DNA from: an uncultured delta proteobacterium
Lineage (GTDB): Bacteria > Desulfobacterota > BSN033 > UBA1163
Direction: 5' to 3'
NCBI GenBank assembly: GCA_963828805.1
Contig: CAWHGS010000048.1
Coordinates: forward strand, 15,152 to 79,151
DNA length: 64,000 nt
The notes beneath the pieces are model-generated. The model ran no database searches. It was not told the DNA's origin and saw nothing but the letters and a program-made list of their open reading frames with translations. The position numbers and the translations under genes were made by a program. Shown piece by piece: positions 2,949-42,402 of the stretch (its first letter is position 1; each line of letters starts with the position of its first letter).

Positions 2949-2975
2949 TCTTGACACTCATAAGGAGGAAATATC

Positions 2976-3840
2976 ATGTCCCGTGAAAGTAATGACACTT
3001 ATCCTAGCGTAAGCTTTGGGAATCTTCAGCTCTCTATTTTTTTCCGGTATGACACCTGTTCATGCCCAGCAGAAGACAATCATCCTTGCCACCACCACCA
3101 GCACACAGGATTCCGGTCTTCTCGATGTTCTTCTCCCCATCTTTGAAAAGAAGACAGGCTATTTTGTCAAGACGATCGCGGTTGGATCCGGGCAGGCCAT
3201 GGCCATGGGACAAAAGGGAGAAGCCGATGTGCTCCTGGTCCATTCCCCTTCGGCAGAGAAGAAATTCATGGCCGACGGTTACGGAGTGAACCGAAGGCTC
3301 GTCATGCATAACGATTTTATTGTCGTTGGGCCTGCAGAAGACCCGGCTAAAATCAAGGGATTAAAATCGTCCCAAGAGGCTTTTAAGAAAATCGCTTCAG
3401 CCAAGGCCCTCTTTTTATCAAGAGGGGATAACTCAGGGACGAATTCAAAGGAAAAAGAGATCTGGAAAGCCGCCGGAATCAACCCCGAAGCAGAGAAATG
3501 GTACCAGCAGACAGGCCTTGGAATGGGCCAGACCTTGAATGTGGCTGCTGAAAAGAAGGGCTATACCCTTGCTGACCGGGGGACCTATCTGTCAATGAAG
3601 AAGAACCTGAACCTCGATATCCTGGTCGAGGGAGATGCCATTCTCCTCAATATCTATCATGTGATCGAGGTCAATCCGGCCAAATGGCCCAAGGTGAATA
3701 CGGCAGGAGCAAAGGCTTTTTCCGACTTCATGGTTTCGAGGGAAACTCAGGACATGATCAAGACCTTTGGTGTCGAAAAGTTCGGATCGCCTCTCTTCTT
3801 CCCGGATGCCGGTAAAAAAGAAGAAGAATTAGGAAAATAG
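2976..3840 (+). CDS. tupA: Tungstate ABC transporter substrate-binding protein, copy 2 (start region probably frameshifted)
   Basis: LATTTSTQDSGLLD canonical TupA motif, MHNDFIVVGP, SRGDNSGTN; RBS AAGGAGG before ATG 2976. Confidence 0.9.
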
Positions 3841-3914
3841 AAAAAATCCGAAGCACAAAGCACCGAATTCGAGACAAATCCGAATGTGATGAAATCGTAG
3901 GAATTCCCCCGAAC

Positions 3915-4003
3915 TGTCATTGCGAGGAGTGAAGCGACGAAGCAATCTAATAGAATCAATGGGTTTCAAATGGTGAGATTGCTTCGCTTCGCTCGCAATG
4001 ACA
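3915..4003. repeat. Intergenic palindromic (REP/RPE-like) element
   Basis: TGTCATTGCGAG...GAAGCAATCT paired with AGATTGCTTC...CTCGCAATGACA. Confidence 0.8.
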
Positions 4004-4121
4004 CCTTTTTTAAGATTCAATACGGGGGAAAATGTTTACGTTTTGCAATTAGGATCATTTGGATTTAGGATTATTTGTGATTTCGGATTTCGATATTTGA
4101 ATTTCGAATTTTGGTGTATAG

Positions 4122-4822
4122 ATGGATCTCATTTTTGAAGGAATTAAAAAGGCTTTCTGGCTTCTGGTCACTTTTGATCCGGAGGTCATTGGAATTACCC
4201 TTCTTTCACTTGAGGTTTCCGGAATCAGCCACCCTCATCAGCCTGTTGATCGGGATATCGACTGGAGTCGCGATCGCCCTTTCCAGGTTTCCCGGGAAGA
4301 AGATCGTTGTAAGTCTTATCAATACGGGAATGGGCCTTCCTCCCGTCGTTGTTGGCCTTTTTGTCACGATCTTTCTCTGGCGGAACGGGCCTCTCGGCTT
4401 TCTGGAAATCCTCTACACACCGACAGCCATGATCTTTGCCCAGGCAGTGATTGCCACTCCCATCGTGATGGGCATTACCCTGGCAGCCATCCAGCAGCTT
4501 CCCCCAAAACTCCGCCTTCAGATTCTGGCCCTCGGGGCAACACGGCTCCAGATGGTATGGATCCTGATCAAGGAAGCGAGACTTCCCCTTATTGGCGGCA
4601 GTCATGGCTGGGTTTGGCGGCGTCATCTCAGAGGTCGGCGCCTCCATCATGGTCGGCGGGAATATTAAGGGATATTCACGGGTTTTAACGACAGCGACGG
4701 TCATGGAGACGAGCCGGGGAAACTTCGATATTGCCATTGCCCTTGGAATTATTCTCCTCCTCCTGGCCTACTTGATCAATTTAATCCTCACGCACATCCA
4801 ACAGAGGGAAAGACCCAGATAA
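4122..4822 (+). CDS. tupB: Tungstate ABC transporter permease (two frameshifts)
   Basis: NTGMGLPPVVVGL, ISEVGASIMVGGNIKG-SRVLTTA; pieces in three frames. Confidence 0.87.
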
Positions 4823-4868
4823 TATCGGGCGATGGGCAAGAGGCAATAGGCTCGAACTCAGAGCAAAT

Positions 4869-5971
4869 ATGAGTAAATCTGAGATCCATCGTAGAAGCTA
4901 AAGATATTCGGGTTGTCAGGGGAGGAACCCTATTGCTGGACATTTCTTCTCTTTTGATCCAGGAAGGAGAGGTTCTTTCCCTGATCGGACCCAATGGGGC
5001 TGGAAAGACGACTTTGATGCAGACGCTCTCTTACCTGCTGAAGCCCTTTCAGGGTGAGATTCGATACAGAGGGCAAACAGTCCATTCGAATCATTCGGTC
5101 ATCGGCTACCGGAGAAGGCTTGCCATGGTCTTTCAGGAACCCCTCCTCTTCGATGCCACTGTCTTTGATAATGTTGCTTCAGGGTTAAGAATTAGAAGAA
5201 TGAAAGGGCCAGAGATGCGGACCATTGTGGAAGAGCAGCTGGCGCGTTTTGGAATTGCTCACCTCGGCCATCGTTCTGCCCGAACCCTTTCCGGGGGAGA
5301 GGCGCAGAGGACGAGCCTTGCCCGGGCCTTTGCAATCCAGCCCGAGATTCTTTTTCTTGATGAGCCCTTTGCCTCCCTTGACCCTCCCAGCCGGGAATCT
5401 CTGATCGAGGATTTGGAACTTATCTTGAAGCAGACAGGGACCACGGCGGTCCTTGCCACTCATGACCGGTTGGAGGCCCTGAGACTTTCGGACCGAATCG
5501 CTGTGATGAAAGATGGGAAGATGGTTCAAATGGGTTCTCCGGAAGCGGTGATGAACTACCCCGTGGATGAGTTCGTTGCTTCCTTCGTCGGAGTGGAAAC
5601 GATACTCACAGGAGAGGTGAAGAAACAGAACAGCGCAACTTTTGTGGCTTCGATTTCGGGAAGTGAAATTGAGGCCGTGGGACAGGTTCCCTTAGGGGAG
5701 ATGGTTTTCCTCTGCATCCGGCCGGAAAACGTGACCCTTTCGACGAACGCTTCGAAGGAAACGACAAGCGCCCGAAATGTTTTCCCGGGAAGGATCGAGA
5801 AAGATTACTTCTCTGGGACCTTATCAAAAGGTCCAACTTGATTGTGGTTTTCCTCTTGTGGCCTATGTGACGCATCATTCTTTGGAAAAGTTGTCGTTGA
5901 AGGAAGGAAAAGAAGTGACTGCTTCCTTTAAGGCAACAGCCATTCATGTCATCAGAAAGAAGGAACAATAA
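4869..5971 (+). CDS. tupC: Tungstate ABC transporter ATP-binding protein with C-terminal TOBE domains (frameshifts; start approximate)
   Basis: GPNGAGKT, LSGGEAQRTSLARA, DEPFASLD, TSARNVF and VTASFKATAIH TOBE motifs. Confidence 0.85.
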
Positions 5972-6591: not shown

Positions 6592-8326
6592 TTATCCCTT
6601 GATCAGTCTCGGAAGCAACATGTGGTGGTGCGGGCAGATCGATCTTGGATTCTGATAGGCCGAATCCGCGAAGGCTACCATATATTTTCTCATATCTGCA
6701 AAGGAGACGATTTCATCGATCAAACCCTTCTTGGCGCAGTAAACGGGCCTCGACTTTTCGTAGTATTCTCGGGCCAGGGCATTCATCTTGTCAATGGTCG
6801 GCTTGAGCGGGCGATTCGAATCCTTTTCCTTCACCAATCGTCTTGCAAAAGAAGCGACCGACGCGGTTTCCCCGTGCATGACGTAGATCTCTGTCGTAGG
6901 GGTTCCGAGCGTGAAGGCATTGTTGTTGTTCGCCTGGGGTCCTCCCATGATGTAGTGGGCTGCCGCAGTTCCCTTTCTCAGGATGATGCACATCATCGGC
7001 AACTCGGTCTGTTCAATCGAGTAAATCAGGGATTGGCCCAATCCAAGGAGCTCGGCCTTTTCCGCGATGTCTCCGACGTCGATGCCGGTCGTATCTTGAA
7101 ACCAGACAATGGGGACTCGATCTCTTCCGCACTGGGTCACGAATTCGTTCATCTTGATGAGCCCCTGCCGATAGAGCTTCCCGCCGACGCCCGGATAAGG
7201 AGCGTACTCAGGATATCCCTTGGGCAGGAACCCCTGGCGATTGCCAATGATACCGATGACGAAACCGTCGATCTTCGCCAGGCCCGTATAGACCTCCGGC
7301 CCGTAGCCCGGCCTGAACTCCATGTGCTCACTATTATCCGTGAGCCGCGCCAGGATTTCATCGAAATTGTAGGCCAGCTTCTGATTGAAAGCGACCAGGC
7401 GGTTAATCTCCTCCTGTGGAGAACTTTGGATCCTTGGGCTCTGCGACCCTGAAGAATTTCGGATCATAGGCAGGGATATACTTCATGTATTCTTTCAGGG
7501 CATCCAGGACCCCCTCTTCCTTCTCGAAGACAGCCTTGAAGAAACCGGTAGAGTCATAATGAATCTCCACCCGCCCCGGAGGAACGGCCTTGAACTTTCT
7601 TGTGGCCTCAATGACCAGTTCCGCCCCTTCCTCGTCAAAGAGACCCTTGGGGCTCATGCCGCTGACAATACCGCCTCCGCCGACGGCAATGTTGCAGTTC
7701 TTGTGGGCCAGAAGGATGGTGGGGCTGACTCCCTGATACCCGCCACCCGCAGGGTTTGTCCCATAAATTCCCGCCAGGACGGGAATGCCAAGCTTCTCCA
7801 ATTCGGCGTGCCTGAAAAACGTTGTTCCGCTTCCTCTTCGGTTGGCATAGACCTTCTCCTGCTCGGTAAGCTTCACGCCGCTGCAGTTAACCAGCCAGAC
7901 AAGGGGGATATGGAGGCGTTTTGCAATGTCCGTGACTCTTAAGATATTTTCTGACTGACCCGCGATCCAGGCTCCGGCCATCACCTTGTTGTCAAAACCG
8001 ATGATCACGGCCCATTTCCCGCTGATCTTGCCAAGGCCATCGACCACGCCGGTTGTCCCTGATTCTTCATCCATAGGGTCGAAAATCGTGTGGAGCGGAC
8101 ACCAGGAACCCGGGTCCAGGAGGTATTCAAGCCGCTGGTATACGGTCATCTCTCCTCTCTTATTTATTTCCTCCGGGGAGAGTCCGGCCTTTTTAACTTT
8201 TTCGACAGCCTCGGAAATCTGTTTTTCGACTTCCTTGATCTGTTTTACATTCTCTTCTGACTTCTTGATCTGTCCATCGGTTAAAGGTTTTCCAAAATCA
8301 GTCATCTTTTCAAAATAGGGCCTCAT
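6592..8326 (-). CDS. gcdA: Glutaconyl-CoA decarboxylase alpha (carboxyltransferase) subunit; one frameshift near 7420-7440
   Basis: NCSGVK, GIYGTNPAGGGY, GGKLYRQGLIKMNEFVT, QDTTGIDVG, AYQNPRSICPHH closely match GcdA as I recall it. Confidence 0.88.
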
Positions 8327-19724: not shown

Positions 19725-20351
19725 ATGCGAGGGAAACGGTGTCCGTATTGCCATAAGTTCTTTTCACCCAATCCGAAAGTAAGGCAACGGCAGAGAACTT
19801 GTGGCCGTCCTTCCTGTCAGAAGGCGTTAAAGGGAGAGAGAAATGCCCGATGGCGAGAGGAAAACCCTGATTGCTGCCGTGGGGATTACTCAAGGGTCAA
19901 AGTCTGGCTTGATGGTCATCCGGGTTATCTCCGGCGTTACAGACAAAGCCATCCTACCTATGTCGAGAAGAATCGTCAGGCCCAAAGGTTCCGGGACCGA
20001 CGAGAAAAGGTTCATCTTGATATACAAGCCAAGATAAAGAGGGAACCTGCTGAAATCATTAATGAAATAACTGAGCAATCATTGAGTTTGTCCCATCTTG
20101 ATATACAAGACGAGACATTCTTACAACCCATTGAAATCCATTATGTTTTATCCACGTTAGCCTGCCTAAAGCCTCTTGATATACAAACTCAGTTGGACAA
20201 ATCGATTCCTTCGAAGGACAATGGCCTTATTCCACCGGGAGGTCAGTCCCATGGCCATCAAAAGACTCCTTTGTCCAGACCGAGTTCGAAAGATCGAAGG
20301 CTCCTTCAGTTGGATCGATCACCGCTTTGTCACCGAAGGGTTCCTCCATGA
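19725..20351 (+). CDS. Element A ORF1: Cys4 zinc-finger, basic protein
   Basis: CPYC-x16-C-x4-C, W...NPD, HPGYLRRYR; homologous to 28256-28657. Confidence 0.75.
   Translation: MRGKRCPYCHKFFSPNPKVRQRQRTCGRPSCQKALKGERNARWREENPDCCRGDYSRVKVWLDGHPGYLRRYRQSHPTYVEKNRQAQRFRDRREKVHLDIQAKIKREPAEIINEITEQSLSLSHLDIQDETFLQPIEIHYVLSTLACLKPLDIQTQLDKSIPSKDNGLIPPGGQSHGHQKTPLSRPSSKDRRLLQLDRSPLCHRRVPP
20013..20194 (+). repeat. Triad of direct repeats TCTTGATATACAA in element A (starts 20013, 20094, 20172)
   Basis: CATCTTGATATACAAGCCAAGAT / CATCTTGATATACAAGACGAGAC / CCTCTTGATATACAAACTCAGTT; spacing 81 and 78. Confidence 0.85.
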
Positions 20352-20649: not shown

Positions 20650-20721
20650 AGATCGCTACCTGAACCTCCCTCGGTTACGGGGAGAAGAAAGAGAAAATAG
20701 ATGAAAACGAAAGGAGGATCC

Positions 20722-22137
20722 ATGGACCCTGCAATGTTGAATCAAGTGAGACATCTCTACGAGGTGGAGCGGTTAAGCCAGCGGCAGATCGCTCAGAAAC
20801 TGGGGATCTCCCGAAAGCGCGTTTCAAGGCTTCTCCATCCGGAGTCTTTGAAAAAACCTTTTCGGGAGACGATCTTCCAATCCTTTGAGCGGCTGGTCCG
20901 GGAGTGGTACCGGGAACACCCCTCTCTGAAAGCGACCCAGGTCTATGAGCGGTTAAAGACCTACGGATTCCCCGGAGGGTATGGAACCGTCAAGCGCCAC
21001 ACCCGGGATCTTCGGAAGAAACAGCGGCGTTGGTTTCATGAACTTGATTTCTTACCGGGCGAGGAGGCTCAGGTAGACTGGATGCAGTGGTCCTTTCCCT
21101 TTGGTGTGCTCTATGGATTTGTCTTGATCCTGGCCTATTCCCGGTATCTTTTTGCCCGATTCTACCCTCGACACTCCCTGGAGTTCTTCTTGGAGGGCCA
21201 CATCGAAGCCTTCAAAGAAATCGAAGGCATGACCCATCGGCTCCGGTATGACAATCTTCGAAGCGTGATCCTCCAACGAAATCCTGAAACCATTTACAAT
21301 CGCCCAATTTTTGGATTTCGCACGACACTACGGCTTCTCCATTCATCCCTGCACACCGGGAAGGGCCAACGAGAAAGGACGCGTAGAAAGGGTGATCAGG
21401 GACATCAAGGACTTCCTCCGGGTCACGCCCTGTGAAGATCTTCGTGAGGCCAACCGCAAACTTTCTCTTTGGCGTCATGAGCGAAACCAGCGGATTCATC
21501 GGAGCACCGACAAATCTCCGATCGAAGCCCTCAGAGAAGAAAGACTCAAAACCCTACCTCAGATTCATTACCAGCCTTACCGGGTCGTCCAGGCTTTGAT
21601 CAGTAAGACCGGTTTTGTCGCGTTGGATACCAACCGTTACTCGGTCCCTTCCTCCTTCTCGGGCTCGGGTTGCGAAATCCTCGCCTATCCCGATCACATC
21701 GAGATCTGTGTCAAAGACAGAAAGATCGCTACCCATCCCCGATCCTTCGAGAGAAAACAGAAGATCGAACATCCCACCCATCGGGAGAAACTCCTTCAGA
21801 TCACGCCTCACTTCAAAGCGAAGCGAATCTATGAGCTCATCAAGGCGCATGGATAAAAGTGTCGCCCTCTTTCTCCAAGAAGCGGAATCCGACGGGCAGA
21901 ATCCCATGGAGGTCGCCTATGACCTCTTCAAGCTCCTGACCCAAAGCTCCAAGGCCATGTTCCTCTCGGCCATCCGGGAGGCCAATGGTTTGAAGATCTG
22001 CAAGATCCGCTACCTTCAGAGCCTTCTTGCAACCCTCTCGATCTCGGGAGGATCATCCTGTCCATCCTCAGAACCCTCACCTCTTAACCATCACCTATCC
22101 CGGGAGGTCTCTCAAAGACTATGACGACCTTGAATGA
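20722..22137 (+). CDS. istA: IS21-family transposase IstA (several frameshifts)
   Basis: N-terminal HTH, PGEEAQVDW, LAYSRY, YDNLRS, ANEKGRVER, DTNRYSVP. Confidence 0.88.
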
Positions 22138-22579
22138 ACTCTGGCGCTTCTTCAAGTTGCTCTCTGAGATCGAAAGTTTCTCCGATCAGGAAAAAACCTT
22201 CTTACTCCGTTTCCTTACCGAGGAGTCTCAACTCCGGGAACAAAAACGAATCCAACACCTGCTCCGTATGTCGGGCATCAAACGAATCAAACGACTGAGC
22301 GACTTCGACTGGACGTTCAATCCCAGGATCCCCCGAGACAAACTCATGGAGTTTGTCCAAACCCAGTGGCTCAAGACCCCCTGCAATCTCGTCCTCATCG
22401 GCCCGGCCGGCGTCGGCAAATCTCACCTCGCCACGGCTCTTTGTTACGAAGCCATCCTCAAAGGCCATCAAACCGTCTTCCTCTCTCTCTTTGATCTCAC
22501 GGCCAAACTCTCCAAAGCCAAGAGCCCTTACACCCTGATCGAGCACTATGAGAAAATCCCCATCCTCTGCCTCGATTAA
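22121..22579 (+). pseudogene. istB: IS21-family ATPase IstB, truncated at Walker B by RIT
   Basis: LSDFDWTFNP, Walker A GPAGVGKSHLA, ends ILCLD then TAA supplied by the RIT end. Confidence 0.9.
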
Positions 22580-22607
22580 TGTGAAGCTGTCAGTAATGTG
22601 GAGTTGA
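22577..22607 (+). repeat. RIT left terminal inverted repeat
   Basis: TAATGTGAAGCTGTCAGTAATGTGGAGTTGA. Confidence 0.95.
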
Positions 22608-22720
22608 GCCCGCAAGAGCCTGCACTCGGGGTCTGCCGGCGTTTTCAACTTCACATTTTTGGGGTAGCATCGGAACTACTGCCGTCCGGCAGTTGAATCC
22701 ATTTTTTATGGAGGTGTCCG

Positions 22721-23960
22721 ATGCTACGTTCTCTATTGCCCAAAGCTCATCCCAAGTTTTTGGCCATGCCTGTATTGGGGCCGATCGTCGATGGCTTTGA
22801 CGATTGGCTCAGCGCCAGTGGCTACACCCGAGGCTCACGCGAATTTTCCATCCGTATACTACCGCGTGTGGATGCGGAACTGCGGCGTCATCAGATTGAT
22901 GATGTCGCCAAGCTGACCCACCCAGTTCTTCACGATTGCTGGAAACTTTTGATGAAAACCTGCCCTGAACGCGCAGGAACCGTGCGGTCCTTGGAACGAT
23001 ATTTACTTGCACAAGGGCTGATCGCTGATGACCGGCAAGCGACAACTCCACCCTCCGTTTCGATTTTGAGTGAAGAGTACGCGAATCACCTGCGCGAAGT
23101 GTGCGGATTCGCTGCGTCCACCATTTCCAGCCACCGGTGTACAGCCAGAGTGTTTTCTCCGGCACCTGGAAGAAGAGGGAGCCACACTGCGATGCATTCA
23201 GACCAGCAATATCGAATCGTACATCGCCAAGACCGGCAAACGCCTGAGCCGGGCAAGTCTCCAACACGATATCGGTGCGCTGAGAGGATTTCTTCGATTC
23301 CTCACCACCAATGGCAGAGTTCCCACCGGACTGGATCGCCAGATCGATACTCCGCGACTTTACCGGCTTGAGCAACTCCCTCGGGCCTTACCCTGGGAAA
23401 CGGTTCGCACACTTCTGCAATCCATTGACACGGCATCGGCGATGGGATTGCGAGATTACGCCATGTTTCTGCTGATTGCCACTTACGGATTGCGCAGCAG
23501 CGAGGTCGTTGCCCTTACCCTCGATGATATTCGCTGGCGTGCAGGCAGTTTACAAATCCATCAGCGCAAGACTTCCTCGCCCTTGGAACTGCCCCTTACC
23601 AACGAAGTTCTGGCCGCACTGGTGAAGCATCTGAAGCGGACTCCACCGCCAGCGCCGTATCGAAGGGTCTTCCTCAGAATGCGCGCTCCCATCGGGGAGC
23701 TAAAACCCACGGCCATTACGGAAGCTTTTCAATCTCTGGTTCGAAAAAGCGGTCTCCGTATTCCTTTTCAAGGCCCACATTGTCTGCGCCACTCCTTTGC
23801 GGTCCATCTGCTCAAAAACGGAACCCCTCTCAAAACAATCGGTGATATCCTCGGGCATCGTACGGCCGAGAGCACGTCGATGTATCTACGCTTGGCGATT
23901 GAGGATTTGCGCGAAGTCGCTCTTCAGGTTCCGGGTAATGGAAAGGGGGGCCAGCTATGA
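22721..23960 (+). CDS. RIT tyrosine recombinase A (frameshift near 23150)
   Basis: LPRALPW, RDYAM, YGLRSSE, HCLRHSFA, ILGH, STSMY. Confidence 0.9.
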
Positions 23961-24966
23961 CAAAAGAAAATGTGGCATTCTCGTCTCGTCTTGCGCCCGT
24001 CTTCGAGCGGTACGTGAATTTGAAGCGGGCTTTGGGCCGCCGTTTCGATCATGAGACTCGGCACTCTGCAATCCCTGGACCGATTCCTGCATGACCATGC
24101 TACCACATACCCAGATCTGAATGCTGCCGCGTTTCAAGCATGGTGCCACACCCAGGAGAAACTTGCTTCGGGGGTTCGGCGGGTTCGCATGCTGCAGGTT
24201 TACAACTTGTGCCTGTATCGCCGTCGAACCGAGCCGCACTGTTTCCTTCCAGACCCCAGCGCCTTTCCCCCATACCATCAACGCCTCCAGCCGTACATCT
24301 TCTCCGAGGACGAAGTGGCGCGACTCTTGCGTGCGGCCTCGGGGTTGAATCGAGTCCCGTCCTCGCCCCTTCGCCCAGAGGTGATTCGACTGGCCATCGT
24401 GCTCTTATTCACTACTGGCATCCGACGCGGGGAGTTGCTGCGTCTCATCCTGAGCGACTATAACCGGCAGAATTCGACGTTGCTCATTCGAGAGTCGAAG
24501 TTTTACAAATCCCGGCTGCTTCCCATCAATAGCGATATCGTCTATGAGATCGAGCAGTATCTGGATGCCCGAGCCCGGCGCCAGCTGCCGACTTCTTCCG
24601 ATACGCCTTTGATATGGAATGCCGCCCAGGGTGGACGAGCATACAGTGGAACGTGTCTGCGGCTCTGCCTACAAGCCGCTGCTCCAGCAATGCGGCATTG
24701 TCACTCCGAAAGGAAGGCTGCCGCGGATTCACGACTTTCGCCACGGCTTTGCCGTAAATGCCCTGCTACGCTGGTACCGAATGGGCGCCGATGTCGAGGC
24801 CAAACTGCCGTTGCTGGCAACTTATCTGGGGCACGGCTCGGCAGTATCGACGCACTACTACTTGCGGTTCATCGAGCCGCTCCGTACGGCCGCCAGCGAG
24901 CGGTTTGCCAATCATTACGGTTCGCTGGTCTCTGCGCTACCGCCCGTGGAAAGGAGGCCCAGATGA
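23957..24966 (+). CDS. RIT tyrosine recombinase B (two frameshifts)
   Basis: PYIFS, TGIRRGE, ESKFYKSRLLP, HDFRHGFA, LATYLGH, THYY. Confidence 0.9.
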
Positions 24967-25975
24967 AACGTCCCTTCCCAATCTACTTGGTGCGATAATC
25001 AGGGATTACTTCACGGATCACCTTCCCCGTCTTCAAGGAACCAGTCCGCACACGATCCACAGTTACCGCGATAGCATGGTTCTGCTCCTTCGTTTTCTTT
25101 CCAAGCAACGGAACAAACCGGTGACGGGACTCGATCTGACTGATTTGGATCCGTCAGGAATTCTCGCGTTTCTCTCCTATCTTGAACAGGAGCGGAAGAA
25201 CAGAGTATCAACGCGAAACGTCCGGCTCTCGGCCATCCACGCGTTCTTTGGCTTCGTGGCATCACGGAATCCCGAGCATCTCGATTTAGCACAGCGTGTC
25301 CTCGGGATCCCTTTCAAGCGCACCCAGCAACGGGCAATCGACTACTTGGAATACGATGAAATCGAGTCAATTCTCAACGCGATCAACCGAAGCACGCCGC
25401 AAGGAACCCGTGACTATGCCCTTCTCGCGACGATGTTCAACACGGGCGCCCGTGTGCAGGAGATCGCTGATCTGCGTGCCTGCGACTTGCAGTTGACCAA
25501 GCCGTTTCAAGTGAGATTGTTTGGTAAAGGCAGGAAGGAACGATACTGCCCTCTATGGCCCCAAACCGCCATGGTATTGCGATCTTTCTGCAATCAGCGG
25601 AACCTGGACTTGCGCTCAGAAGCTCGCGTCTTTCTGAACCATCGTAACGAGTCGTTAACCCGCTTCGGGATTCGTCATATCCTAGCCAGGTGCCTCGCTT
25701 CCGCTTGCCAAGACGCCCCGAATCTCCGCAAGAAAAGGCTGCATCCACACAGCATTCGGCATAGCACGGCCGTAGCCCTCCTAAAATCGGGAGTTGATTT
25801 ATCAACGATAAGCCACCTGCTCGGACATGCGAGCCCAACCACGACGAATCGCTACGCGAAAGTCGATCTGGAAATGAAGCGTCGGGCCATCGCACGGGTC
25901 AAACCGGTTCCACGGCGGTCACGTACGCCTTGGGCCAAAGACCACACGGTGTTGGACTGGCTGGAATCTTTGTAG
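24963..25975 (+). CDS. RIT tyrosine recombinase C (frameshift just after start)
   Basis: SPHTIHSYRD, TRNVRLSAIH, TGARVQE, GKGRKER, HSIRHS, LLGH, TNRYA. Confidence 0.92.
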
Positions 25976-26034
25976 GCGCATTTTAATGTGGAGTTGACAG
26001 CCCAAGAAAGCTCGGTTTCATGGAGTTCCGCACG

Positions 26035-26065
26035 TCAACTCCACATTACTGACAGCTTCACATTA
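26035..26065 (-). repeat. RIT right terminal inverted repeat
   Basis: TCAACTCCACATTACTGACAGCTTCACATTA, exact reverse complement of the left repeat. Confidence 0.95.
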
Positions 26066-26521
26066 GTCGATACAGAGGACCCTGACCTTTGCATAATAAT
26101 CGATTTTGGAAGCCGGGTTGTAAGCCCTATGGATCCTTGAGACGAGGTCGAAGGCGGTGATACAAGCCGTGGGATAACCCCGGAGAATCGCCTCATAACA
26201 AAAGGCTGAAGCGATATGGGATTTACCAAGCCCAGTGTCTCCGATGAGGACAAGGTTGAAGGCATTTTCGACCCAGGGCGAGTTGACGAAGGTCAGGATG
26301 TCGTCCTTGCTGATCTTGGGATTGAAGTGCCAGTCGAACTGCTCCAGAGTCTTGACATGTTTTATGCCCGACAGACTCAGGAGTCTTTTGATTTTATGCT
26401 GCCTTCTGTATTCGATCTCCATCTTGAGGAAGTGAGGATTGCTTTCACGGCGGTCGGAGGCGATCTCATCGGGCGGGGTCTTGCAGCCCAATTCCTTAAG
26501 CAGGGATTCAAGATCATTCAT
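26063..26521 (-). pseudogene. istB: IS21-family ATPase IstB, truncated at Walker B by RIT
   Basis: LEQFDWHFNP, Walker A GDTGLGKSHIA, ends VLCID then TAA supplied by the RIT end. Confidence 0.9.
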
Positions 26522-27929
26522 CGTACTCCTCCAATCCTCTGGGTTTATAAGAGATATTCAGAAGCTCGTCCTTCTGAGGCTGGACGGTCTCGGCCTCGGT
26601 AAACTCCATGTGCAGATACGACAGAAACGTCCTGAGTCTGGGGGACTTCTTGTTGAGACACTCCGAGGCGACACTGATGAGCATTCCCCGGCTGTGGCTT
26701 TTCATAAGCTTGAAGATCTCATAAGCAGTCTTTTGAGGGTCCTCTCCGACATGTCTCGATTTTTGACCAGGAAGTCCGACATCGCAGGATGCAGGTTTTT
26801 GATCACCTCATGGATCCGGTCGATCTTGGCCTTGACGGAGAGCTTACCGTAACTCCTGTGAAGGGGATTGATGATCTGACCGTGTCTGTCAAAGGACCTC
26901 GGATGAGAGGCCACCCGCTTGGCGCCGTCGTAGATCGTGACCGTATCCGGGGTTGAATGTATGGAGAGGGATTTTCCCACGAGGTAGTCGGGCACGGAAT
27001 AGTTATTTGTATCAAAGATCATCAGGGCGGTCTTGGTGGTCTTGACCGGCGGATGGATCAAAACATTGTTCCAGGGTTTCTCGGGAAGGGGCCGGAGTTT
27101 CTCCTCCTGAAGCACCTCTACCGGCTTCTTCCGTGGTTCTGTGGACGGTATGGTTTTTATGGTCCACCCATTCATGAAGCGCCTGATTGAGGGCCTTTAG
27201 AGAAGAATGCATCTGTATGGTATTGAAGAATGTTTCTCTCAGCGTTCGGATCGCCCGTTCCACACGGCCCTTCTCGTTGCCCGCCCCAGGATTGCACAGC
27301 CGGATCTCCAGGGTGTAATGGCGTGAGAACTCCAAAAAGCGTGGATTATACTGGATCTCCGGCCTGCGCTTTAATACCACGGTTGAGAGGTTGTCATACC
27401 GGATGCCGTAGGGAATCCCCCCAAGGGCACAAAAAGCCATCAGATGCCCCTCGATAAAGAACTCAAATGAACTGCGGGCGAAAACATGGGCAAACAGATA
27501 CCGCGAGTAGCTCAGGATATAGATGAAGCCGTAAAGTTTTCCAAGGTGGGGATGGTTGATAAAACACCAGTCTGCTTGTGCCTCCTCCCCCGGGAGAAAG
27601 GTGAGCGGATGATAGGCCTTCGGCACCTTTTTACGGAACCCCCTCGTATACTTGACCACCGCAGGGTAGCTAATCTTTGCTCCCCTCGTCCTTAACCACC
27701 CGTGGACTTGCTGGGCCTTTAAGGTCGGATGCTCTTTGAACCACTCCGCGATCAGAGAGCGGTAGGGGTCCAGGATAAAGTCCCTCCTTTGTCGCCTCTC
27801 CGGACAGCATTCTCGATATATGCGCGAGGCGCGCTTTCGCGAGATCCCGGTCCGGTCTTGGATCTGGTAAAAGCTCAGATTTAGGACGTCCCGAAGATAA
27901 CGGATCGTCTGTCTTATCGTCTCTTCCAT
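26514..27929 (-). CDS. istA: IS21-family transposase IstA (frameshifts)
   Basis: PGEEAQADW, LSYSRY, YDNLST, GNEKGRVER, DTNNYSVP. Confidence 0.88.
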
Positions 27930-28206: not shown

Positions 28207-28240
28207 GGGTCAATCGTAGAATAGCCGAATCAATGGATCA

Positions 28241-28411
28241 ATCGAATCTTGTATCTCACAGCGCCTTTTGTCCTCCGGCAACGTAGGAGCCGCATTCACA
28301 CTGCCTTACCAGCCTTATCTCGTCTTGTATCTCGTTTTTGAGCATTCTCTCCGGTATCACGAGAACCATGGTCCTGACTGGCTCCGAAGGGGGTATCTCG
28401 TCTTGTATCTC
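28241..28411 (-). repeat. Triad of direct repeats GAGATACAAGA in element B (starts 28411, 28333, 28257)
   Basis: GAGATACAAGACGAGATA twice and GAGATACAAGATTCGAT; spacing 78 and 76. Confidence 0.85.
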
Positions 28412-28657
28412 ACGGACCTTTTTCCTCCAGAGCCGCTGATAATCGGGATGCTTCTTACGCCACTCCTTGATTTCGCTGTACCGGCCCTTGAAACAGTCCG
28501 GATTCGCCTCCAACCATTTCTTCTGGCTCTCCCTCTTGCGCTTGGCCCTGCACGTCGTATCACTGCAACTCTTTTGGGTTTTCCTCGCCCTCGGATCAGG
28601 CCTGTAATACCGTCCGCAGTAGACGCACCTCTTCTGTCCGTTCTCTGTCGCTTCCAT
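28256..28657 (-). CDS. Element B ORF1: Cys4 zinc-finger, basic protein
   Basis: CVYC-x16-C-x4-C, W...NPD, HPDYQRLWR. Confidence 0.75.
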   Translation of the reverse strand: MEATENGQKRCVYCGRYYRPDPRARKTQKSCSDTTCRAKRKRESQKKWLEANPDCFKGRYSEIKEWRKKHPDYQRLWRKKVREIQDEIPPSEPVRTMVLVIPERMLKNEIQDEIRLVRQCECGSYVAGGQKAL

Positions 28658-28854
28658 ACGCTTATCTTGACAGATAAGGTGACAGCCGAACTTAGGGGCG
28701 GTTGTATCAGGGAATCAAAAGAATTAAATACATTGAATGTGGGGGGGGGAATTAAATGAAGAATAAAGGTGGGGCCTGTGCTTATCGGAATCAGGTCAGT
28801 TTTGGATATCGCCTACAGAATACGGGTCTTTCGTTACATCAGGGACTCGGGCTA

Positions 28855-28870
28855 TGTTTCACGTGAAACA
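28855..28870. promoter_or_regulatory. parS centromere site
   Basis: Perfect consensus TGTTTCACGTGAAACA. Confidence 0.93.
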
Positions 28871-29006
28871 TAAGAAGATATCGCGTCCGTGTTTCGTGTT
28901 CGGGGATTTGACCAAGGGTGCCCTGTAACCCCCCTCGCCCCCCCCCCTTTGTACGAAAGGGGGGAAGGTTAATTAAGGAAATTTAGATCTAACAAAATTT
29001 GTTTGT

Positions 29007-29522
29007 CTATACTCCTTCGAAGGGGGCAGGATAGACAATCATCCCCGATATACCGTCTAATGCGCCGGGAACCAGTTCAGTTACCATGAACGCTTCATCA
29101 GGGACGGGAAAGGGTGCTTCCAGTCCTTTTGCTCTCGCTGGGGTGAAGCCAAACCGCGGATAGAATTCCGGGTGACCCACCACGACAACAATCTTGTGGC
29201 CAAGACTTCGGCACCGCTCCAATCCTTCCCTCACGAGCCTGGAGCCAATTCCTTGATTCTGGAATTCCGGATGAACAGCCATGGGCGCAAGGGCCAGGGC
29301 AGGAAGGGATCCTTTTTTTGATTCAATGGTGATGGGACTAAACAAAATATGGCCGACTACCCTTCCCTCTTCAACGGCCACAAGGGATAATTGAGCATTA
29401 AATGAACAGGATTTCCTAAGGTTTTCCACAAGCCTTGCCTCGTTTTCTCCACCGAAGGCAAGAACATTGATCTCATGGATGGCGGAATGGAGTTGTTCTT
29501 TTTCGGGAAGAATCAATACCAC
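29007..29522 (-). CDS. GNAT N-acetyltransferase (YhbS-like)
   Basis: LSLVA...VGHILFSP, LAPMAVHPEFQNQGIGSRL, VVGHPEFYPRFGF. Confidence 0.92.
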   Translation of the reverse strand: MVLILPEKEQLHSAIHEINVLAFGGENEARLVENLRKSCSFNAQLSLVAVEEGRVVGHILFSPITIESKKGSLPALALAPMAVHPEFQNQGIGSRLVREGLERCRSLGHKIVVVVGHPEFYPRFGFTPARAKGLEAPFPVPDEAFMVTELVPGALDGISGMIVYPAPFEGV

Positions 29523-29580: not shown

Positions 29581-29616
29581 GGAACAACTGAATTTATGGT
29601 CGGACGCTAATCATTC

Positions 29617-29632
29617 TGTTTCACGTGAAACA
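29617..29632. promoter_or_regulatory. parS centromere site
   Basis: Perfect consensus TGTTTCACGTGAAACA. Confidence 0.93.
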
Positions 29633-29758
29633 TATCAAATTCGAAATGCGGAATTAATGCCCCATGCCCGGAGGGCGCCCCTGCTTGCGCCAAGGCTCCG
29701 GTAGGAAGGCTCGAACCATGAAAATGGGTTTCCATTGCTCGCTTGCGTGAATGCTATC

Positions 29759-29925: not shown

Positions 29926-31349
29926 CTATTTTCCGATGCAGAATTGATCAAATATTCGGTTTAGCACATCTTCGGAAGTGGTTTCTCCCATCAGCTCTCC
30001 GAGGGCTTCGAGGCAAGACCGAATATCGAAGGCGATGAATTCAGGTGAACTTCCCTCTTCCAGACCTTTGATTGCACTTGAGAGATTGTCCCTCGCCTGA
30101 GCCAGACCATTCTTGTGCCGAATGTTGGCGACGATCAGGTGATCAGGAGATTTTCTCACGTCCCTATGGATCAGGGAAGTGTAGATTGCTTCTTTCAGGT
30201 CATTGATTCCCTCATTCTTAAGCGCTGAAAGATGAACGATTGGGTCGTTTTCAAATTTAGCTTTCAGGCTCTCTTCCGAGACTCTAACGGGAAGATCCTT
30301 CTTGTTCACGACCAACACTCTTTTCCTTCTCTCTGTTTTTTGCAGGATCTCCCGGTCATCTTCGTCAAGCTCACGGCTACCATCAATCACTAACAGGAGG
30401 AGGTCTGCTTCGTCCATTTTCTCCTTCGTTTTCTTCACCCCTTCCCGCTCCACAGTGTCCACTGTCTTTCTCAGCCCTGCCGTATCCATGAGTCTCACAG
30501 GAATCCCTTGAACATTAAGAGACTTCCTCAATCACGTCCCTGGTTGTCCCAGGCACCGGCGTCACAATAGCTCTTTCCTCTTTGATGAGCACATTAAGAA
30601 GGCTCGATTTCCCCACATTCGTCTTTCCGATGATGGCACAGGAGATTCCCTCACGGAATATCTTGCCCTCTTCATAGGACGCGATCCATTCCTCCAATTT
30701 TTCGACCATTCCCGTCAGATCATCCTGAAGCCTTCTCAAAGAAACCGACTCGATCTCTTCTTCCGGGAAATCGATATGGGCCTCGATCAGGGCCAGGTGA
30801 TTCACCAGCGTTTCTTTGAGGGACATCATTTCCTTAAAGAGCATGCCTCTGAGTTGCTGATTGGCGACCTCGAGGCCGGCCATGGTCCTCGACCTGATCA
30901 GATCGATCACCGCTTCAGCCTGGGTGAGATCGATCCGGCCATTGAGAAAGGCCCTCTTTGTAAACTCTCCGGGCTGGGCAATCCTTGCGCCTTCCTTCAG
31001 GACCAGCTCCAACATTTTCTGTAAAATCAGGTATCCGCCATGGCAATGAATCTCGACAACATCCTCCCTGGTGTAAGTTCTGGGCGCCTTCATCAGGACA
31101 ACAAGGACCTCATCGACAGCATCTGCCTGTCTCGGGATTGATGATCTCTCCGTAATGGAAATGGTGTGAAATAGACTGGGTGGAGTCTTTCCTTGGCTTA
31201 AATAATTTGCGGACAATCGACTCGGCCTTGGGGCCGCTCATGCGGACGATTCCGATGCCGCTTTCTCCAACAGGGGTTGAAATGGCAGCGATCGTTTCCT
31301 CTTCCCCGGCCGCTTCCTGTTTCGAAATGGTAGAGATGTTTCGATTCAA
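29926..31349 (-). CDS. mnmE: tRNA modification GTPase MnmE (two frameshifts)
   Basis: [47 protein letters not shown]. Confidence 0.95.
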
Positions 31350-34513: not shown

Positions 34514-36935
34514 ATGATCCCAGAAAATATCCTTGTCAATATCGAAGATGAAATGAAAAAGTCCTATATGGACTACGCCATGAGCGTGATCATCGGCCGC
34601 GCGCTTCCGGATGTGAGGGACGGTTTAAAGCCTGTCCACCGCCGCATCCTCTATGCCATGAATGAGCTCAGCAATGATTGGGATAAACCCTACAAGAAGT
34701 CTGCAAGAATCGTCGGCGATGTCATCGGTAAGTACCATCCTCACGGAGACATGGCTGTCTATGATGCCATCGTCAGAATGGCCCAGGATTTCTCTCTGCG
34801 GTATCCCCTGGTCGACGGGCAAGGAAATTTCGGATCCATCGATGGAGACCCTCCGGCAGCCATGCGTTATACGGAGATCCGCATGGCCAAGCTCACGGCC
34901 GAGCTGCTGGCGGATATCGATAAAGACACGGTCGGTTTTGTTCCCAACTATGACGATTCTCTGACGGAACCCGCCGTCCTCCCATCCAAATTTCCCAACC
35001 TCATCGTCAACGGTTCCTCCGGAATTGCGGTCGGAATGGCAACCAACATCCCTCCCCACAATATGGTCGAAACGATCGATGCCCTGATCACCCTGGTCGA
35101 CAATCCGGATGCCTCTTTGGAAGAACTGATGACGCATCTTCCCGGCCCGGATTTTCCAACCGCCGGGTTCATTTACGGGAAAGACGGGATCCGACAGGCC
35201 TACGAAACCGGAAAAGGGGTGATCCAGATTCGAGCCAGGGCGATCATCGAGCGGGATCGAAAGGGTGAGCGAGAAAATATTGTCGTCACAGAACTTCCTT
35301 ACCAGACCAATAAGGCCAGATTGATCGAGAAGATTGCCGAGCTCGTCCGGAATAAGACGATGGAAGGGATCTCCAATATTCGTGACGAATCGGACCGGGA
35401 AGGGATGAGGGTCGTCATCGAGCTCAAACGGAACGAAATGGCGGAAGTCATCCTGAATCAGCTTTATAAACATACTCAGATGCAAACCTCCTTTGGGATC
35501 ATTCTTCTGGCCATCCACCAGAACCAGCCGAGGCTTCTTACCCTTAAGGAGATGCTTCAGCTCTTCATTCAGCATCGCCAGGAAGTGGTCACCCGAAGGT
35601 CCCTTTTCGATCTCAAAAAGGCTGAGGCGAGGGCTCACATCCTGGAAGGTCTGAAAAAAGCGATCGACCAGATCGACGCCGTCATCGCGGCGATCAGGGC
35701 GTCGAAGACTCCCAAAGAGGCCAAGGAACGCTTGATCGAACGATTTGGATTCTCCGATGAACAAGCCCAGGCCATTCTCGAGATGAGACTCCAACGGCTC
35801 ACCAACCTCGAACAGCGTAAGATCGTCGAGGAGTTTGAGGAATTGATCAAGCTGATCAATCGATTGAAGGCGATCCTTGAAAGTGAGCGATTGAAGCTCA
35901 ACTTGATCAAGGAAGAACTGGTCTCGATTCGAGACGCCTTCGGAGACGAGCGAAGAACTGAAATCGTCGATATCGCCCCCGAGATTCGCCGCGAAGACCT
36001 GATTGCGGAAGAGGATATGGTGGTCACCATCACCCACACCGGGTATATTAAGAGAAATCCCATCAGCCTCTACCGGAGCCAACATCGTGGAGGAAAGGGA
36101 AAAGTCGGCATCAATGTCAAAGAAGAGGATTTTGTCGAAGACCTCTTCATTGCATCCACCCATGATTACATCCTCTTTTTCACCGATGCCGGAAAGATCT
36201 TTTGGAAAAAAGTTCACGAACTCCCTCAGGCGGCCCGATTGACCCGCGGCAAGGCCATCGTCAATCTTCTTAACCTGGGGCCACGGGGAAAAGGTGACCA
36301 CGATCCTTCCCCTCAAAGATTTTACAAAGGACAAGTTTATAAACTTCATGACGAAAAGAGGGGTCATTAAGAAGACCTCCCTTGAAGCTTACAGCAATCC
36401 GCGGGCAGGGGGTATCATCGCCATCAACCTCGATGAAGGGGACGAACTCATTTCGACCAAGATAACGGATGGAAAAAACCATCTCTTTATCGGCACGAAG
36501 CTGGGAAAGGCCATCCACTTTCCGGAAAGTCAAATAAGGGAGATTGGCCGCACGGCTCGGGGGATGAGAGGGATCAGAATTTCCAAAGAAGATGAAGTGG
36601 TGGGAATGGAAGTGGTCGCTCCTCACACTCAGATCCTGACCGTCGCCGCCCACGGCTATGGAAAACGAACCCAGGCTTCTGAGTACCGCATCCAGAACAG
36701 GGGAGGTTCGGGAATCTTTACGCTGAAGAGAACAGCCAAGACAGGAAATGTGGTGAGCATTAAGACCGTCGTCGATGAGGACGAATTAATGGTCATCTCA
36801 GACCAGGGCAAAATTATCCGATTGCGGGCAGCCGATATTCCCGTGCAGGGAAGAAGCACGCAGGGAGTAAGGCTGATCAATCTTGAGGAGGGAGAGCGGG
36901 TGGTTGCCGTGGGAAGATTGGCTGAAAAGGAATAA
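34514..36935 (+). CDS. gyrA: DNA gyrase subunit A (frameshift near 36280)
   Basis: [27 protein letters not shown], GyrA-box QHRGGKG, C-terminal repeats. Confidence 0.97.

Positions 36936-40002: not shown

Positions 40003-42402
<2,400 letters not shown>

Follow-up and report, generated by a model that had tools for sequence, protein, structure and literature searches.

A clade of RIT elements very probably integrates site-specifically into the istB gene of IS21-family elements, exactly between the codons for the Walker-B Asp and Glu. The member that led to this conclusion lies in a 64,000-nucleotide stretch of DNA from an uncultured delta proteobacterium (hereafter the window), in which a 3,489-bp element (22577-26065) containing ritABC and bounded by perfect 31-bp inverted ends has the 5′ part of an IS21 istB gene on either side, the two istB genes being divergent. 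As far as our searches reach, the features new relative to known RITs are the D/E target in the istB Walker B, a carried 32-nt palindrome with an arm matching the target hexamer, and a recurrent derivative built from two targets (slashes mark junctions throughout). The preliminary description placed the event at 22560-26080, a span that frames the element itself, while the units involved extend from about 20701 to 27929:

20701-22124, + strand: istA of IS21-like unit a, transposase, in pieces (ORFs 20701-21435 with HTH and rve, 21311-21856 with rve_3 and Mu-transpos_C_2)
22121-22576, + strand: istB-a 5′ part, ending at the Walker-B Asp (…ILCLD); PF01695 E 5e-26; NF038214 positions 24-158 of 232
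22577-22607, + strand: left terminal inverted repeat of the RIT, with two direct copies of the 13-nt motif WAATGTGRAGYTG inside
22646-22658, - strand: third copy of the 13-nt motif, inverted, 70-82 nt from the left RIT end
22721-23960, + strand: ritA, tyrosine recombinase; Phage_integrase E 1e-26 and a SAM-like domain
23957-24966, + strand: ritB, tyrosine recombinase; Phage_integrase; ATGA overlap with ritA
24963-25975, + strand: ritC, tyrosine recombinase; Phage_integrase E 5.5e-32; ATGA overlap with ritB
25984-25996, + strand: third copy of the 13-nt motif, inverted, 70-82 nt from the right RIT end, mirroring 22646-22658
26035-26065, - strand: right terminal inverted repeat of the RIT, 31/31 nt complementary
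26066-26521, - strand: istB-b 5′ part, ending at the Walker-B Asp (…VLCID); PF01695 E 1.8e-22, profile 34-160 of 238; NF038214 34-158 of 232
26518-27929, - strand: istA of IS21-like unit b, in pieces (ORFs 27012-27929 with rve, 26702-27175 with Mu-transpos_C_2)

The element was assigned to the RITs on the basis of three adjacent, same-strand Phage_integrase genes joined by ATGA overlaps (23957-23960 and 24963-24966), inverted repeats of roughly 30 bp at its termini, and a size near 3.5 kb; the 38 complete relatives range from 3,438 to 3,513 bp. The 31-nt repeat occurs twice in the window without mismatches and was matched in 0/100 shuffles, and no copies beyond this pair were found in the 2.5-Mb assembly of the same genome. 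Six of the seven window matches to the 13-nt motif lie at the RIT ends (shuffle mean, 0.43), and Rfam and tRNA scans of the window returned no matches. Tyrosine recombinases share the catalytic set Arg…His-x-x-Arg…Tyr, and inspection of the translations by eye suggests candidate counterparts, GARVQE…HSIRH…NRY in RitC and comparable strings in both RitA and RitB. RitA has been described as carrying two core-binding domains and RitC an extra C-terminal helix by Smyshlyaev et al. 2021 (PMC8138268); Pfam detected a single SAM-like domain in the RitA piece. NCBIfam holds no RIT-specific model, and all of its matches to the rit genes were Xer-like and below cut-off.

Each rit gene contains one or two apparent single-base shifts, four across ritABC as compared to the intact relative L001. 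These comprise one additional base in ritA near 23147 (relative to L001 and to contigs of metagenomes X1-X3), extra bases in ritB near 24058-24062 and 24672 (relative to L001, and for 24062 also to metagenome contigs), and a missing base in ritC near 24973 (relative to L001). Single bases at 21846 and 22030 of istA-a are absent from related contigs, and istA-b differs from relatives by single bases at 26749-26759. Because gyrA, gyrB, mnmE and a carboxyltransferase gene in the window are split by the same kind of shifts, the assembly is regarded as indel-rich, and the apparent rit frameshifts are probably assembly errors; a reading of the RIT and both IS21 units as decayed pseudogenes was dropped, as those four genes are likewise split. 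The source genome is a metagenome-assembled genome (MAG) of 58 contigs, 64% complete, with many single-base indel errors. No public sequencing run contained more than 0.30 of the sampled words; Logan contigs of four runs served only to look for empty sites, for palindromes next to element ends, and for indels.

On both sides of the RIT, an IstB family match, a GxGKS motif and an istA gene directly upstream identify IS21 units. NF038214 matched the two IstB fragments with E values of 2e-30 and 1e-24, truncation of the proteins keeping the scores under the full-length cut-off; the Walker-B Asp is the last residue before the stop in both, and both lack a complete AAA+ module (Walker-B Asp-Glu, sensor, arginine finger). 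The left junction reads …ATCCTCTGCCTCGAT/TAATGTG, encoding ILCLD plus a stop, and the right junction, reverse-complemented, reads …GTCCTCTGTATCGAC/TAATGTG, encoding VLCID plus a stop. The preliminary description had claimed that two divergent istB genes are cut at the same Walker-B codon and take their stops from the first TAA of the repeat, and both junctions bear this out: the fragments are 40-47% identical, both end at NF038214 position 158, and the repeat supplies the stop on each side (TAA at 22577-22579 for istB-a). As truncated IstB ends at the Walker-B Asp, both IS21 copies would be expected to need a helper protein from elsewhere, a dependence that, like the disabling of IS21 put forward in the preliminary description, is predicted from what the shortened protein is missing.

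Uninterrupted homologues of both window istB genes were found on contigs of other metagenomes and in the relatives G016 and G008. Contigs of three other metagenomes run on past the position equivalent to 22576 with GAGTTGGGTTATGTGG… (ELGYVV), while for istB-b, homologues with 87-89% nucleotide identity in two same-family genomes read VLCID/ELGYTYHKK…, and a homologue on a contig of metagenome X3 is likewise uninterrupted. Such empty sites were found only in other strains. In the source genome, an HMM scan of the 64% complete assembly revealed no istB 3′ halves, and a scan of the same assembly revealed no second RIT or palindrome-like site. A third istB, intact and located on contig C44 of this genome, offers a good site yet is unoccupied, which counts against the targeting model. 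The RIT part of the query had no match in the 30 relatives searched.

A search with RitC returned 6,721 relatives at E≤1e-20, the best being 93% identical, and 78 relative loci were collected by RitC alone, blind to their context. At least one end was recognizable in 58 of these, giving 98 ends, 93 of which had a flank of at least 32 nt (the five shorter flanks were dropped). For the other 20 loci, allowing up to 8 mismatches to the window repeat revealed no end, and the flank counts exclude them; several of these (L030/31, L046, L057, L063, L065 and L073) do carry palindromes, at ends that have diverged. Nor are the loci independent of one another, since many come from kindred soil MAGs and several are copies from the same genome (L039-42, L033/34, L047/49/52/53). 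The proposal had called for a check of relatives' flanks for istB Walker-B junctions, and istB stands at the junction in 33 of the 58 loci, with no case of reversed istB polarity among those 33. According to HMMs built here, an IstB 5′ part runs directly into the repeat in 31 flanks outside the window, and an IstB 3′ part (E-L-G-Y...) follows the 32-nt palindrome in 18; the 44 of 93 usable flanks that are not IstB consist of other targets, degenerate palindromes or unknown sequence. Pfam was run on 42 of the 64 palindrome-free flank fragments (all of at least 60 residues, except L052:5728-5976, a degenerate palindrome) and assigned 28 to IstB_IS21, including the two from the window. Four pairs of 5′ and 3′ pieces were placed on the Pfam IstB profile, and in all four the former stops at position 160 and the latter begins at 161.

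The target genes themselves are diverse, as the IstB proteins hit by relatives are only 20-30% identical to those in the window, and RITs on proteobacterial plasmids with 47-48% RitC identity display the same pattern (LLILD / RIT / palindrome / DWG). On the 5′ side of the target, GA at -3/-2 and T at -11 are present in 33/33 flanks, and on the 3′ side, all 18 flanks have G at +1, A at +2 and G at +7. Across the 33 flanks, conservation follows codon constraint only (T at -14, -11, -8 and -5; GAY at -3 to -1; then GA..T.GG). The 14-nt site first proposed was thus over-fitted to two related genes. Relatives' junctions, the 160/161 split, empty sites and isolate plasmids all support the earlier suggestions that the RIT recognizes the istB Walker-B site, that either RIT end can join it, and that the element nests in IS21. 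Because the relatives share the istB codon of the window, the element has the look of a parasite of parasites with a precise address.

What did not survive is the notion of a RIT lying between two halves as the normal form, as the normal order is 5′ half, RIT, carried 32-nt palindrome, 3′ half. That the palindrome is carried follows from four copies in one genome (L039-L042), whose flanks differ although three of them have the same palindrome and the fourth departs from it at one central base only; the palindrome lies either left or right of ritABC. The 6 nt of its arm resemble the target hexamer, with 120/150 positions identical over 25 loci and 6/6 in 11 loci, as compared to 69.8 ± 6.5 for shuffled arm-hexamer pairings (0/10,000 reach 120). 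Some insertions (L040, L042) have an identity as low as 3/6, so that the address must depend on more than homology. None of the contigs examined contained a circle junction or an excision product, and in its treatment of RITs, Nielsen 2017 (PMC5737581) reports raised mobilome coverage and no circle junction.

A complete insertion reads 5′ istB…hhhhD / inverted repeat - ritABC - inverted repeat / 32-nt palindrome / E-L-G-Y… 3′ istB, with the palindrome travelling with the element. The target typically closes with the 6 nt ATCGAC, and the outermost 6 nt of the palindrome are similar, which makes this hexamer the presumptive crossover (overlap) region. The symmetry of these sequences suggests a mechanism. 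When the element is joined or circular, palindrome arm, hexamer and terminal repeat would compose a classical tyrosine-recombinase core site (…ACATTT-ATCGAC-TAATGT…) that could recombine with the hexamer in istB. As the RIT ends are mirror images, the trio could sit in either orientation, while the palindrome would always end on the 3′ side of istB, and the integrated copy would retain one full core site at the joint of repeat and palindrome.

With two istB 5′ halves and no palindrome, the window copy is a derivative involving two targets. The form recurs in L009, L025 and L036, each with an IstB 5′ part at either end, and probably in L035; a Mycetohabitans isolate also has it (DVLLLD/ and DVLILD/), on a plasmid sequenced to a finished circle. 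Two insertions in different IS21 copies may have exchanged partners, or the retained core site may have recombined with a second, empty istB; either route would yield a palindrome-free RIT flanked by 5′ halves in convergent orientation. A serious contender, to which we give slightly less than an even chance, is homologous recombination that needs no Rit proteins and acts on two complete RIT insertions lying in direct orientation. The two palindromes and the two 3′ halves would be lost with all that lies between them, yielding exactly the window product, and the predicted reciprocal, a palindrome on both sides and two 3′ flanks, matches L073, where the two outward flanks are identical. A solo palindrome between two 3′ halves, the product expected from a retained site and an empty target, was seen in no locus examined; a loose pattern for it matched the Mycetohabitans plasmid at 2 places, no more than in the control, and neither resembles a palindrome. 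However, a Rit-mediated exchange of the same two copies would leave an identical sequence, and the presence of this form in at least five loci with both flanks readable is frequent for rare events. Homologous exchange would in any case alter the last step only, as both insertions still hit the same codon.

An assembly chimera, in which two RIT copies, one in each IS21 unit, were joined through the 3.5-kb repeat to give a false adjacency, is improbable, although the fragmented and error-rich MAG described above leaves room for it and the window junctions are known from assembly sequence alone. A cultured isolate has the same architecture on its finished plasmid, as do other MAGs on long contigs (212,901 bp in the case of L009), and a collapse of two normal insertions should leave at least one palindrome, whereas neither side has one. 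The indel-rich assembly also suggests long reads, which would usually span 3.5 kb, and even a chimera would leave two insertions at the same codon. The idea that no targeting occurred, with istB breaking or recombining at Walker B of itself or IS21 inserting beside the RIT and the shared codon a coincidence, is exceedingly improbable and has nothing specific in its favor beyond the fact that two junctions alone could not exclude chance: by our own estimate for a ~750-nt gene, a random second break would strike the homologous nucleotide about 1 time in 750, 31 further 5′ and 18 3′ junctions in other genomes fall at the same codon boundary, the halves flank RIT plus palindrome with no target loss (profile 160/161), the breaks lie inside the IS and not at its ends, and intact homologues read straight through.

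Site-specific insertion into istB gives RITs a concrete, checkable target at the D/E boundary of Walker B and a candidate attachment site of repeat, hexamer and palindrome. Together with the predicted products (empty site, circle junction, two-target rearrangements), this would allow a mechanism study to be designed. RITs have been catalogued since 2009 and were reportedly studied by Ricker et al. in 2013, and to our knowledge their movement has never been reproduced. Like the present element, those described earlier have three overlapping tyrosine-recombinase genes, a length of ~3.5 kb and ~30-bp inverted repeats, often in several identical copies per genome (PMC3414803, PMC8138268). Among the examples given by Van Houdt et al. 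2012 (PMC3414803) are a RIT inside the transposase gene of a Tn6049-like transposon and one in radC of an ICE, with 'a palindromic sequence' noted beside ritC. The table in a 2023 comparison of tyrosine-recombinase transposons gives their target specificity as untested (PMC10214605). No publication of istB targeting by RITs was found in the literature searched.

Preference for another mobile element is known elsewhere: IS4321/IS5075 target the end repeats of Tn21-type transposons, and Tn5053/Tn402 are 'res hunters'. These elements likewise prefer a conserved feature that offers a harmless site and a ride, but do so with DDE or IS110-type enzymes at non-coding ends or res sites, whereas the window RIT uses tyrosine recombinases, aims at catalytic-motif codons inside a gene, and splits it. 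Inteins and group I and II introns with homing endonucleases also occupy conserved catalytic motifs. As in those cases, the element is addressed to the part of a gene family that is conserved best, so that very divergent homologues are open to invasion; homing elements splice out and leave a working host gene, while RIT insertion truncates the protein with no sign of splicing. Tn554 resembles RITs in having several recombinase-type proteins, a strong single-site preference and insertion in either orientation, but its recombinases number two, joined by TnpC, its target is chromosomal, and it lacks long terminal inverted repeats, according to the accounts in PMC10214605 and PMC3414803. The same accounts state that its 6-bp core can pass from the old to the new site, and a similar carry-over would account for palindrome arms that are similar, though not identical, to the target now occupied. 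GInt/SE elements, as outlined in PMC5385486 and PMC10214605, also combine several tyrosine recombinases with site-specific integration, but are cargo-bearing genomic islands with three or four tyrosine-recombinase-like genes, other gene sets including a fourth protein, and targets that are not transposon genes.

The case adds a clear bacterial example of one transposon specialized on the catalytic motif of another. RIT insertions should silence IS21 copies, RITs could reach plasmids inside IS21 copies, and a retained recombination site could fuse or invert DNA between them. For annotation, many 'IstB pseudogenes next to three integrases' would represent one event. RITs of other lineages occupy tnpB of IS66, genes for DDE transposases, and ardC. 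We tentatively entertain, at slightly less than even confidence, that the RIT class as a whole consists of homing hyperparasites, each lineage aiming at the codons of a catalytic or otherwise invariant motif in a mobile-element gene (Walker B for IstB of IS21, VYD/GQGF for TnpB of IS66, the DRGY region for DDE transposases, HExxH for plasmid ArdC), with its address partly encoded in the 6-nt arm of the palindrome. If so, an arm change would retarget closely related trios, and the three recombinases would divide among them the element-end motifs and two unlike target half-sites, giving a reason for the trio. RITs with 78-84% RitC identity to that of the window carry the arms GGCTCC, AGGTTG, GTAATG and TGCGAC, with matching hexamers in quite different genes.

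A single RIT (recombinase-in-trio) element, 3,489 bp in length and present only once in the 2.5-Mb, 58-contig assembly, separates two truncated istB genes in the window. The preliminary description had placed both of its ends against the 5' half of a different istB, each broken right after the Walker-B Asp, and these junctions and the terminal repeats were confirmed in the assembled sequence. The repeats are as follows.

22577-22607, plus strand: left terminal repeat, 31 nt, its mate inverted with 0 mismatches
26035-26065, inverted: right terminal repeat, 31 nt, mate of the left repeat with 0 mismatches

None of 100 shuffles contained a match to the 31-nt repeat. A domain search detected Phage_integrase domains in all three same-strand genes between the repeats, which overlap their neighbours by ATGA, at 23957 and at 24963. 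A 13-nt motif (WAATGTGRAGYTG) occurs three times at either end, twice in direct orientation (nt 1-13 and 18-30) and once inverted (nt 70-82), and the two ends are mirror-symmetric; six of the seven matches to this motif in the window lie at the RIT ends, against 0.43 expected. Gene order, size and end structure agree with the description of RIT elements by Van Houdt et al. 2012 (PMC3414803). As a RIT, the element is ordinary.

Outside the repeats, each flank encodes the N-terminal 152 residues of IstB (PF01695, E values of 5e-26 and 2e-22), with istA (rve and Mu-transposase C domains) upstream, and the two IS21 units point toward each other with the RIT between them. The pieces share 40-47% identity, and both stop at position 158 of 232 in NCBIfam NF038214, which we read as the Walker-B Asp from a string of four hydrophobic residues and Asp about 55 residues past GxGKS. 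The window repeat starts with TAA and thus stops translation immediately after this Asp, a feature that is not general, since the repeats of other RIT lineages start with TTA. Efficient IS21 transposition requires the IstB ATPase. As the truncated proteins lack the Walker-B Glu and all residues beyond it, the invaded IS21 elements should be crippled as long as no help comes in trans.

None of the three rit genes, and neither istA, can be read without single-base shifts. Compared to the closest complete relative (L001, 92.6% nucleotide identity, three open frames), the window RIT is one base short near 24973 and has surplus bases near 23147, 24058 and 24672; contigs of other metagenomes do not have the bases at 23147 and 24062 either. 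Decay of the element was considered first and then dropped, as housekeeping genes in the same window show the same splits, each broken at one point into two overlapping frames.

34514-36935: gyrA, two frames
40003-41701: gyrB, two frames
29926-31216, minus strand: mnmE, two frames
6592-8326, minus strand: carboxyltransferase gene, two frames

These four genes cannot all be dead, which marks the assembly as indel-rich; the frame shifts in the RIT are probably assembly errors as well, and with single-base indel errors this frequent, genes of this genome should be called pseudogenes only with caution.

Relatives of RitC are numerous (6,721 at E<=1e-20), many of them 83-93% identical and many on contigs of ~3.5 kb. 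Plasmid records with a match number 583, and one Paraburkholderia has 7 places. A scan with RitC only, using one genome per species and ignoring context, yielded 78 loci, mostly in Acidobacteriota MAGs. With a RIT end accepted at no more than 8 mismatches to the window repeat, at least one end was located in 58 loci, giving 98 ends, 93 of which have at least 32 nt of flank. Two kinds of flank dominate (a slash marks the insertion point hereafter). In one, a coding sequence extends to the repeat, its last five residues being four hydrophobic ones and Asp (...LLIID/, ...LLICD/, ...VLLID/); in the other, a palindrome of 32 nt (GTCGATAAATGTTGAGCTCAACATTTATCGAC in locus L078, for instance) follows the repeat and leads on to E-L-G-Y.... 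Pfam identified IstB_IS21 in 28 of 42 flank-encoded fragments of at least 60 residues, the two window fragments included. When custom HMMs for the 5' and 3' parts of IstB were built from the Pfam-confirmed pieces, a 5' part was scored directly at the repeat in 31 non-window flanks and a 3' part beyond the palindrome in 18. Flanks of either type occur in 33 of the 58 loci, which come mostly from MAGs and are not independent, and reversed istB polarity was found in none of the HMM-scored flanks of these loci. The proposal that this RIT targets istB was both supported and sharpened. One of the loci (L058, 3602-9020) has its RIT ends 5.4 kb rather than 3.5 kb apart, and its RitC match stops at residue 242; it seems to carry an insert of ~1.9 kb in ritC.

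Thirteen loci retain both halves of one istB, one per side. In all four pairs delimited by Pfam IstB, position 160 is the last of the 5' piece and position 161 the first of the 3' piece, so that insertion is exact, proceeds without loss of target bases and adds the RIT plus the palindrome. Empty sites were found for both window genes. Contigs of three other metagenomes match the left istB up to 22576 and then continue with GAGTTGGGTTATGTGG... (E-L-G-Y-V-V), an equivalent uninterrupted contig for the right istB exists in a fourth, and in the same metagenome contigs palindromes follow the ends of near-identical RITs. Homologues of the right IS21 unit with 87-89% nucleotide identity are present in two genomes of the window's family, with istB uninterrupted (...KVRVLCID/ELGYTYHKK...); a search of 30 relatives gave no match to the RIT part of the query. 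The window's own assembly contains a third, intact istB of IS21 type (contig C44, minus strand, 4623-5369 of the reverse complement) whose LLLID/ELGY site is unoccupied.

The palindrome belongs to the RIT element. Four loci in one genome (L039-L042) have near-identical palindromes (three are the same and the fourth differs at one central base) amid differing neighbours; two copies have the palindrome to the left of ritABC, the other two to the right. It is laid out as 6 nt, a 7-nt motif, 6 nt, a 7-nt motif and 6 nt, the motifs being similar, not identical, to the first bases of the terminal repeat. Across 25 loci, its outer 6 nt, or arm, are identical to the last 6 nt of the same-locus target at 120 of 150 positions, as compared to 69.8 ± 6.5 for shuffled pairings, none of which reached 120 in 10,000 trials. 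The match is complete in 11 of the 25 loci, and other arms accompany other target hexamers by lineage (GGCTCC, GTTCTG, AGGTTG, TACGAC). Because matches go down to 3 of 6 (L040 and L042), the hexamer is not the whole address. Among 33 5' flanks, T is conserved at -14 (32/33), -11 (33/33), -8 (29/33) and -5 (28/33), G and A at -3 and -2 (33/33), and C or T occupies -1; the 18 3' flanks have invariant G and A at +1 and +2, T at +5 and G at +7. The conserved positions of the 5' flanks are those set by codons. While recognition of a site in istB stood, the 14-nt site first proposed proved too specific, as only codon-fixed positions are kept across the 33 flanks. The consensus 3' of the insertion point, GAGCTN (+1 to +6), is similar to two parts of the element: GAGCTC or CAGCTG, the hexamer at the centre of the palindrome, and RAGYTG, which forms the 3' half of the 13-nt motif at the ends.

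The arrangement recurs in other RITs. In proteobacterial plasmid RITs (Bradyrhizobium, Rhizobium; RitC 47-48% identical), among them the apparently intact copies of L080 and L081, LLILD, RIT, palindrome and DWG... follow one another. Further lineages, likewise with a palindrome, sit at other addresses, mostly in mobile-element genes.

L044, L050, L056, L059, also L046, L057, L063: IS66 tnpB, Pfam TnpB_IS66 positions 53/54
L028: IS4-type DDE transposase gene, ...FYVM/DRGY...
L029: DUF932 gene
L022: DnaG-like primase gene
L027: peptidase M1 gene, ...ILVLH/.../ELTHQWFG (H/ELTH)
L084, Phaeobacter inhibens plasmid, 2114-5566: plasmid ardC (anti-restriction), LAHELT/, metalloprotease motif codons
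Sphingobium: strawberry-notch gene

The IS66 tnpB lineage (RitC 56-67% identical to that of the window) inserts as ...ILVYD / RIT / palindrome / GQGFWLCQKRL..., and its palindrome arms, TACGAC and TATGAT, match the tnpB target. The ardC case recurs in two further hits (H71 and H85); the L084 ends share the architecture with a different motif (TAATGCCGCGC), and the palindrome is at the opposite side. Ends of istB type also occur in non-istB genes in L042 (LIFD/.../VFGY), L005 and L064 (...SHPSLIF followed by Y or D at the insertion point) and L027, and these look like off-target insertions. The DNA at these junctions is istB-like (xTxxTxxTxGAY/G...), which suggests that the RIT recognizes its target at the DNA level.

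The window copy lacks the palindrome and has 5' istB halves on both sides. IstB 5' parts also score on both sides in L009, L025 and L036. A Mycetohabitans isolate has the form as well: on a plasmid of its finished, circular sequence two IS21 units converge and stop at the two repeats with DVLLLD/ and DVLILD/. The form is therefore a real, recurrent product and no oddity of this assembly. L035 is probably a further example, and L005 has the window-type form with IstB at one side. Locus L073 (268-3773) has the same palindrome on both sides and outward flanks that are identical and inverted (GKPAVRNFRGG...), and looks like a reciprocal counterpart to the window form. A solo palindrome between two 3' istB halves was not seen in the loci inspected.

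Alongside the observed address, exactness of insertion, fixed polarity, carried palindrome and hexamer match, a most likely mechanism may be proposed. Inverted motifs around a spacer are the layout of tyrosine-recombinase core sites (lambda, Cre and Xer sites). In a joined form of the element, arm, hexamer and terminal repeat would create such inverted 7-nt motifs around a 6-nt spacer (...ACATTT-ATCGAC-TAATGT...), and a crossover in the hexamer with istB ATCGAC/GAG would give precisely the two observed junctions. The joined region would be one long palindrome with two mirror-image core sites, so that ritABC could enter in either orientation with the palindrome always beside the 3' half. Where repeat and palindrome meet, a single complete core site would survive integration. 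If two insertions, each in another IS21 copy, then exchanged partners, whether through the Rit proteins or through homologous recombination, the window form could result; alternatively, it may have arisen when the retained core site recombined with another istB that was still empty. Neither an excision nor an integration intermediate was observed.

According to Van Houdt et al. 2012 (PMC3414803), a Tn6049-like transposon has a RIT inside its transposase gene, an ICE has one in its radC, and a palindrome adjoins ritC. Nielsen et al. 2017 (PMC5737581) report palindromic repeats of 47 and 51 bp at RIT ends and did not find a circle. A comparison table from 2023 (PMC10214605) gives the target specificity of RITs as "not tested" and states that RIT transposition was never reproduced. 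No paper linking RITs to istB was found in the literature searched; to judge from it, neither the istB address nor the palindrome that the element carries nor the two-target product appears to have been described so far. Together, these three make the RIT mechanism testable.

Additional features were noted in the window. Upstream of each istA lies a Pfam-negative, Cys-rich ORF, after which each unit has three copies of an 18-22-nt repeat (...CTTGATATACAAGACGAGA...) spaced by ~78 nt. The IS21-like units may have these as their multiple terminal repeats, or the repeats may belong to a larger unit. A palindromic 18-21-nt sequence (TGTTTCACGTGAAACA...) occurs in two copies, with a GNAT acetyltransferase gene between them.

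19725-20351, plus strand: Cys-rich ORF
28256-28657, minus strand: Cys-rich ORF
20013-20193 and 28240-28411, mutually inverted: 18-22-nt repeat sets, in-frame L-D-I-Q
28853-28873 and 29614-29634: copies of the palindromic 18-21-nt sequence
29007-29522, minus strand: GNAT acetyltransferase gene
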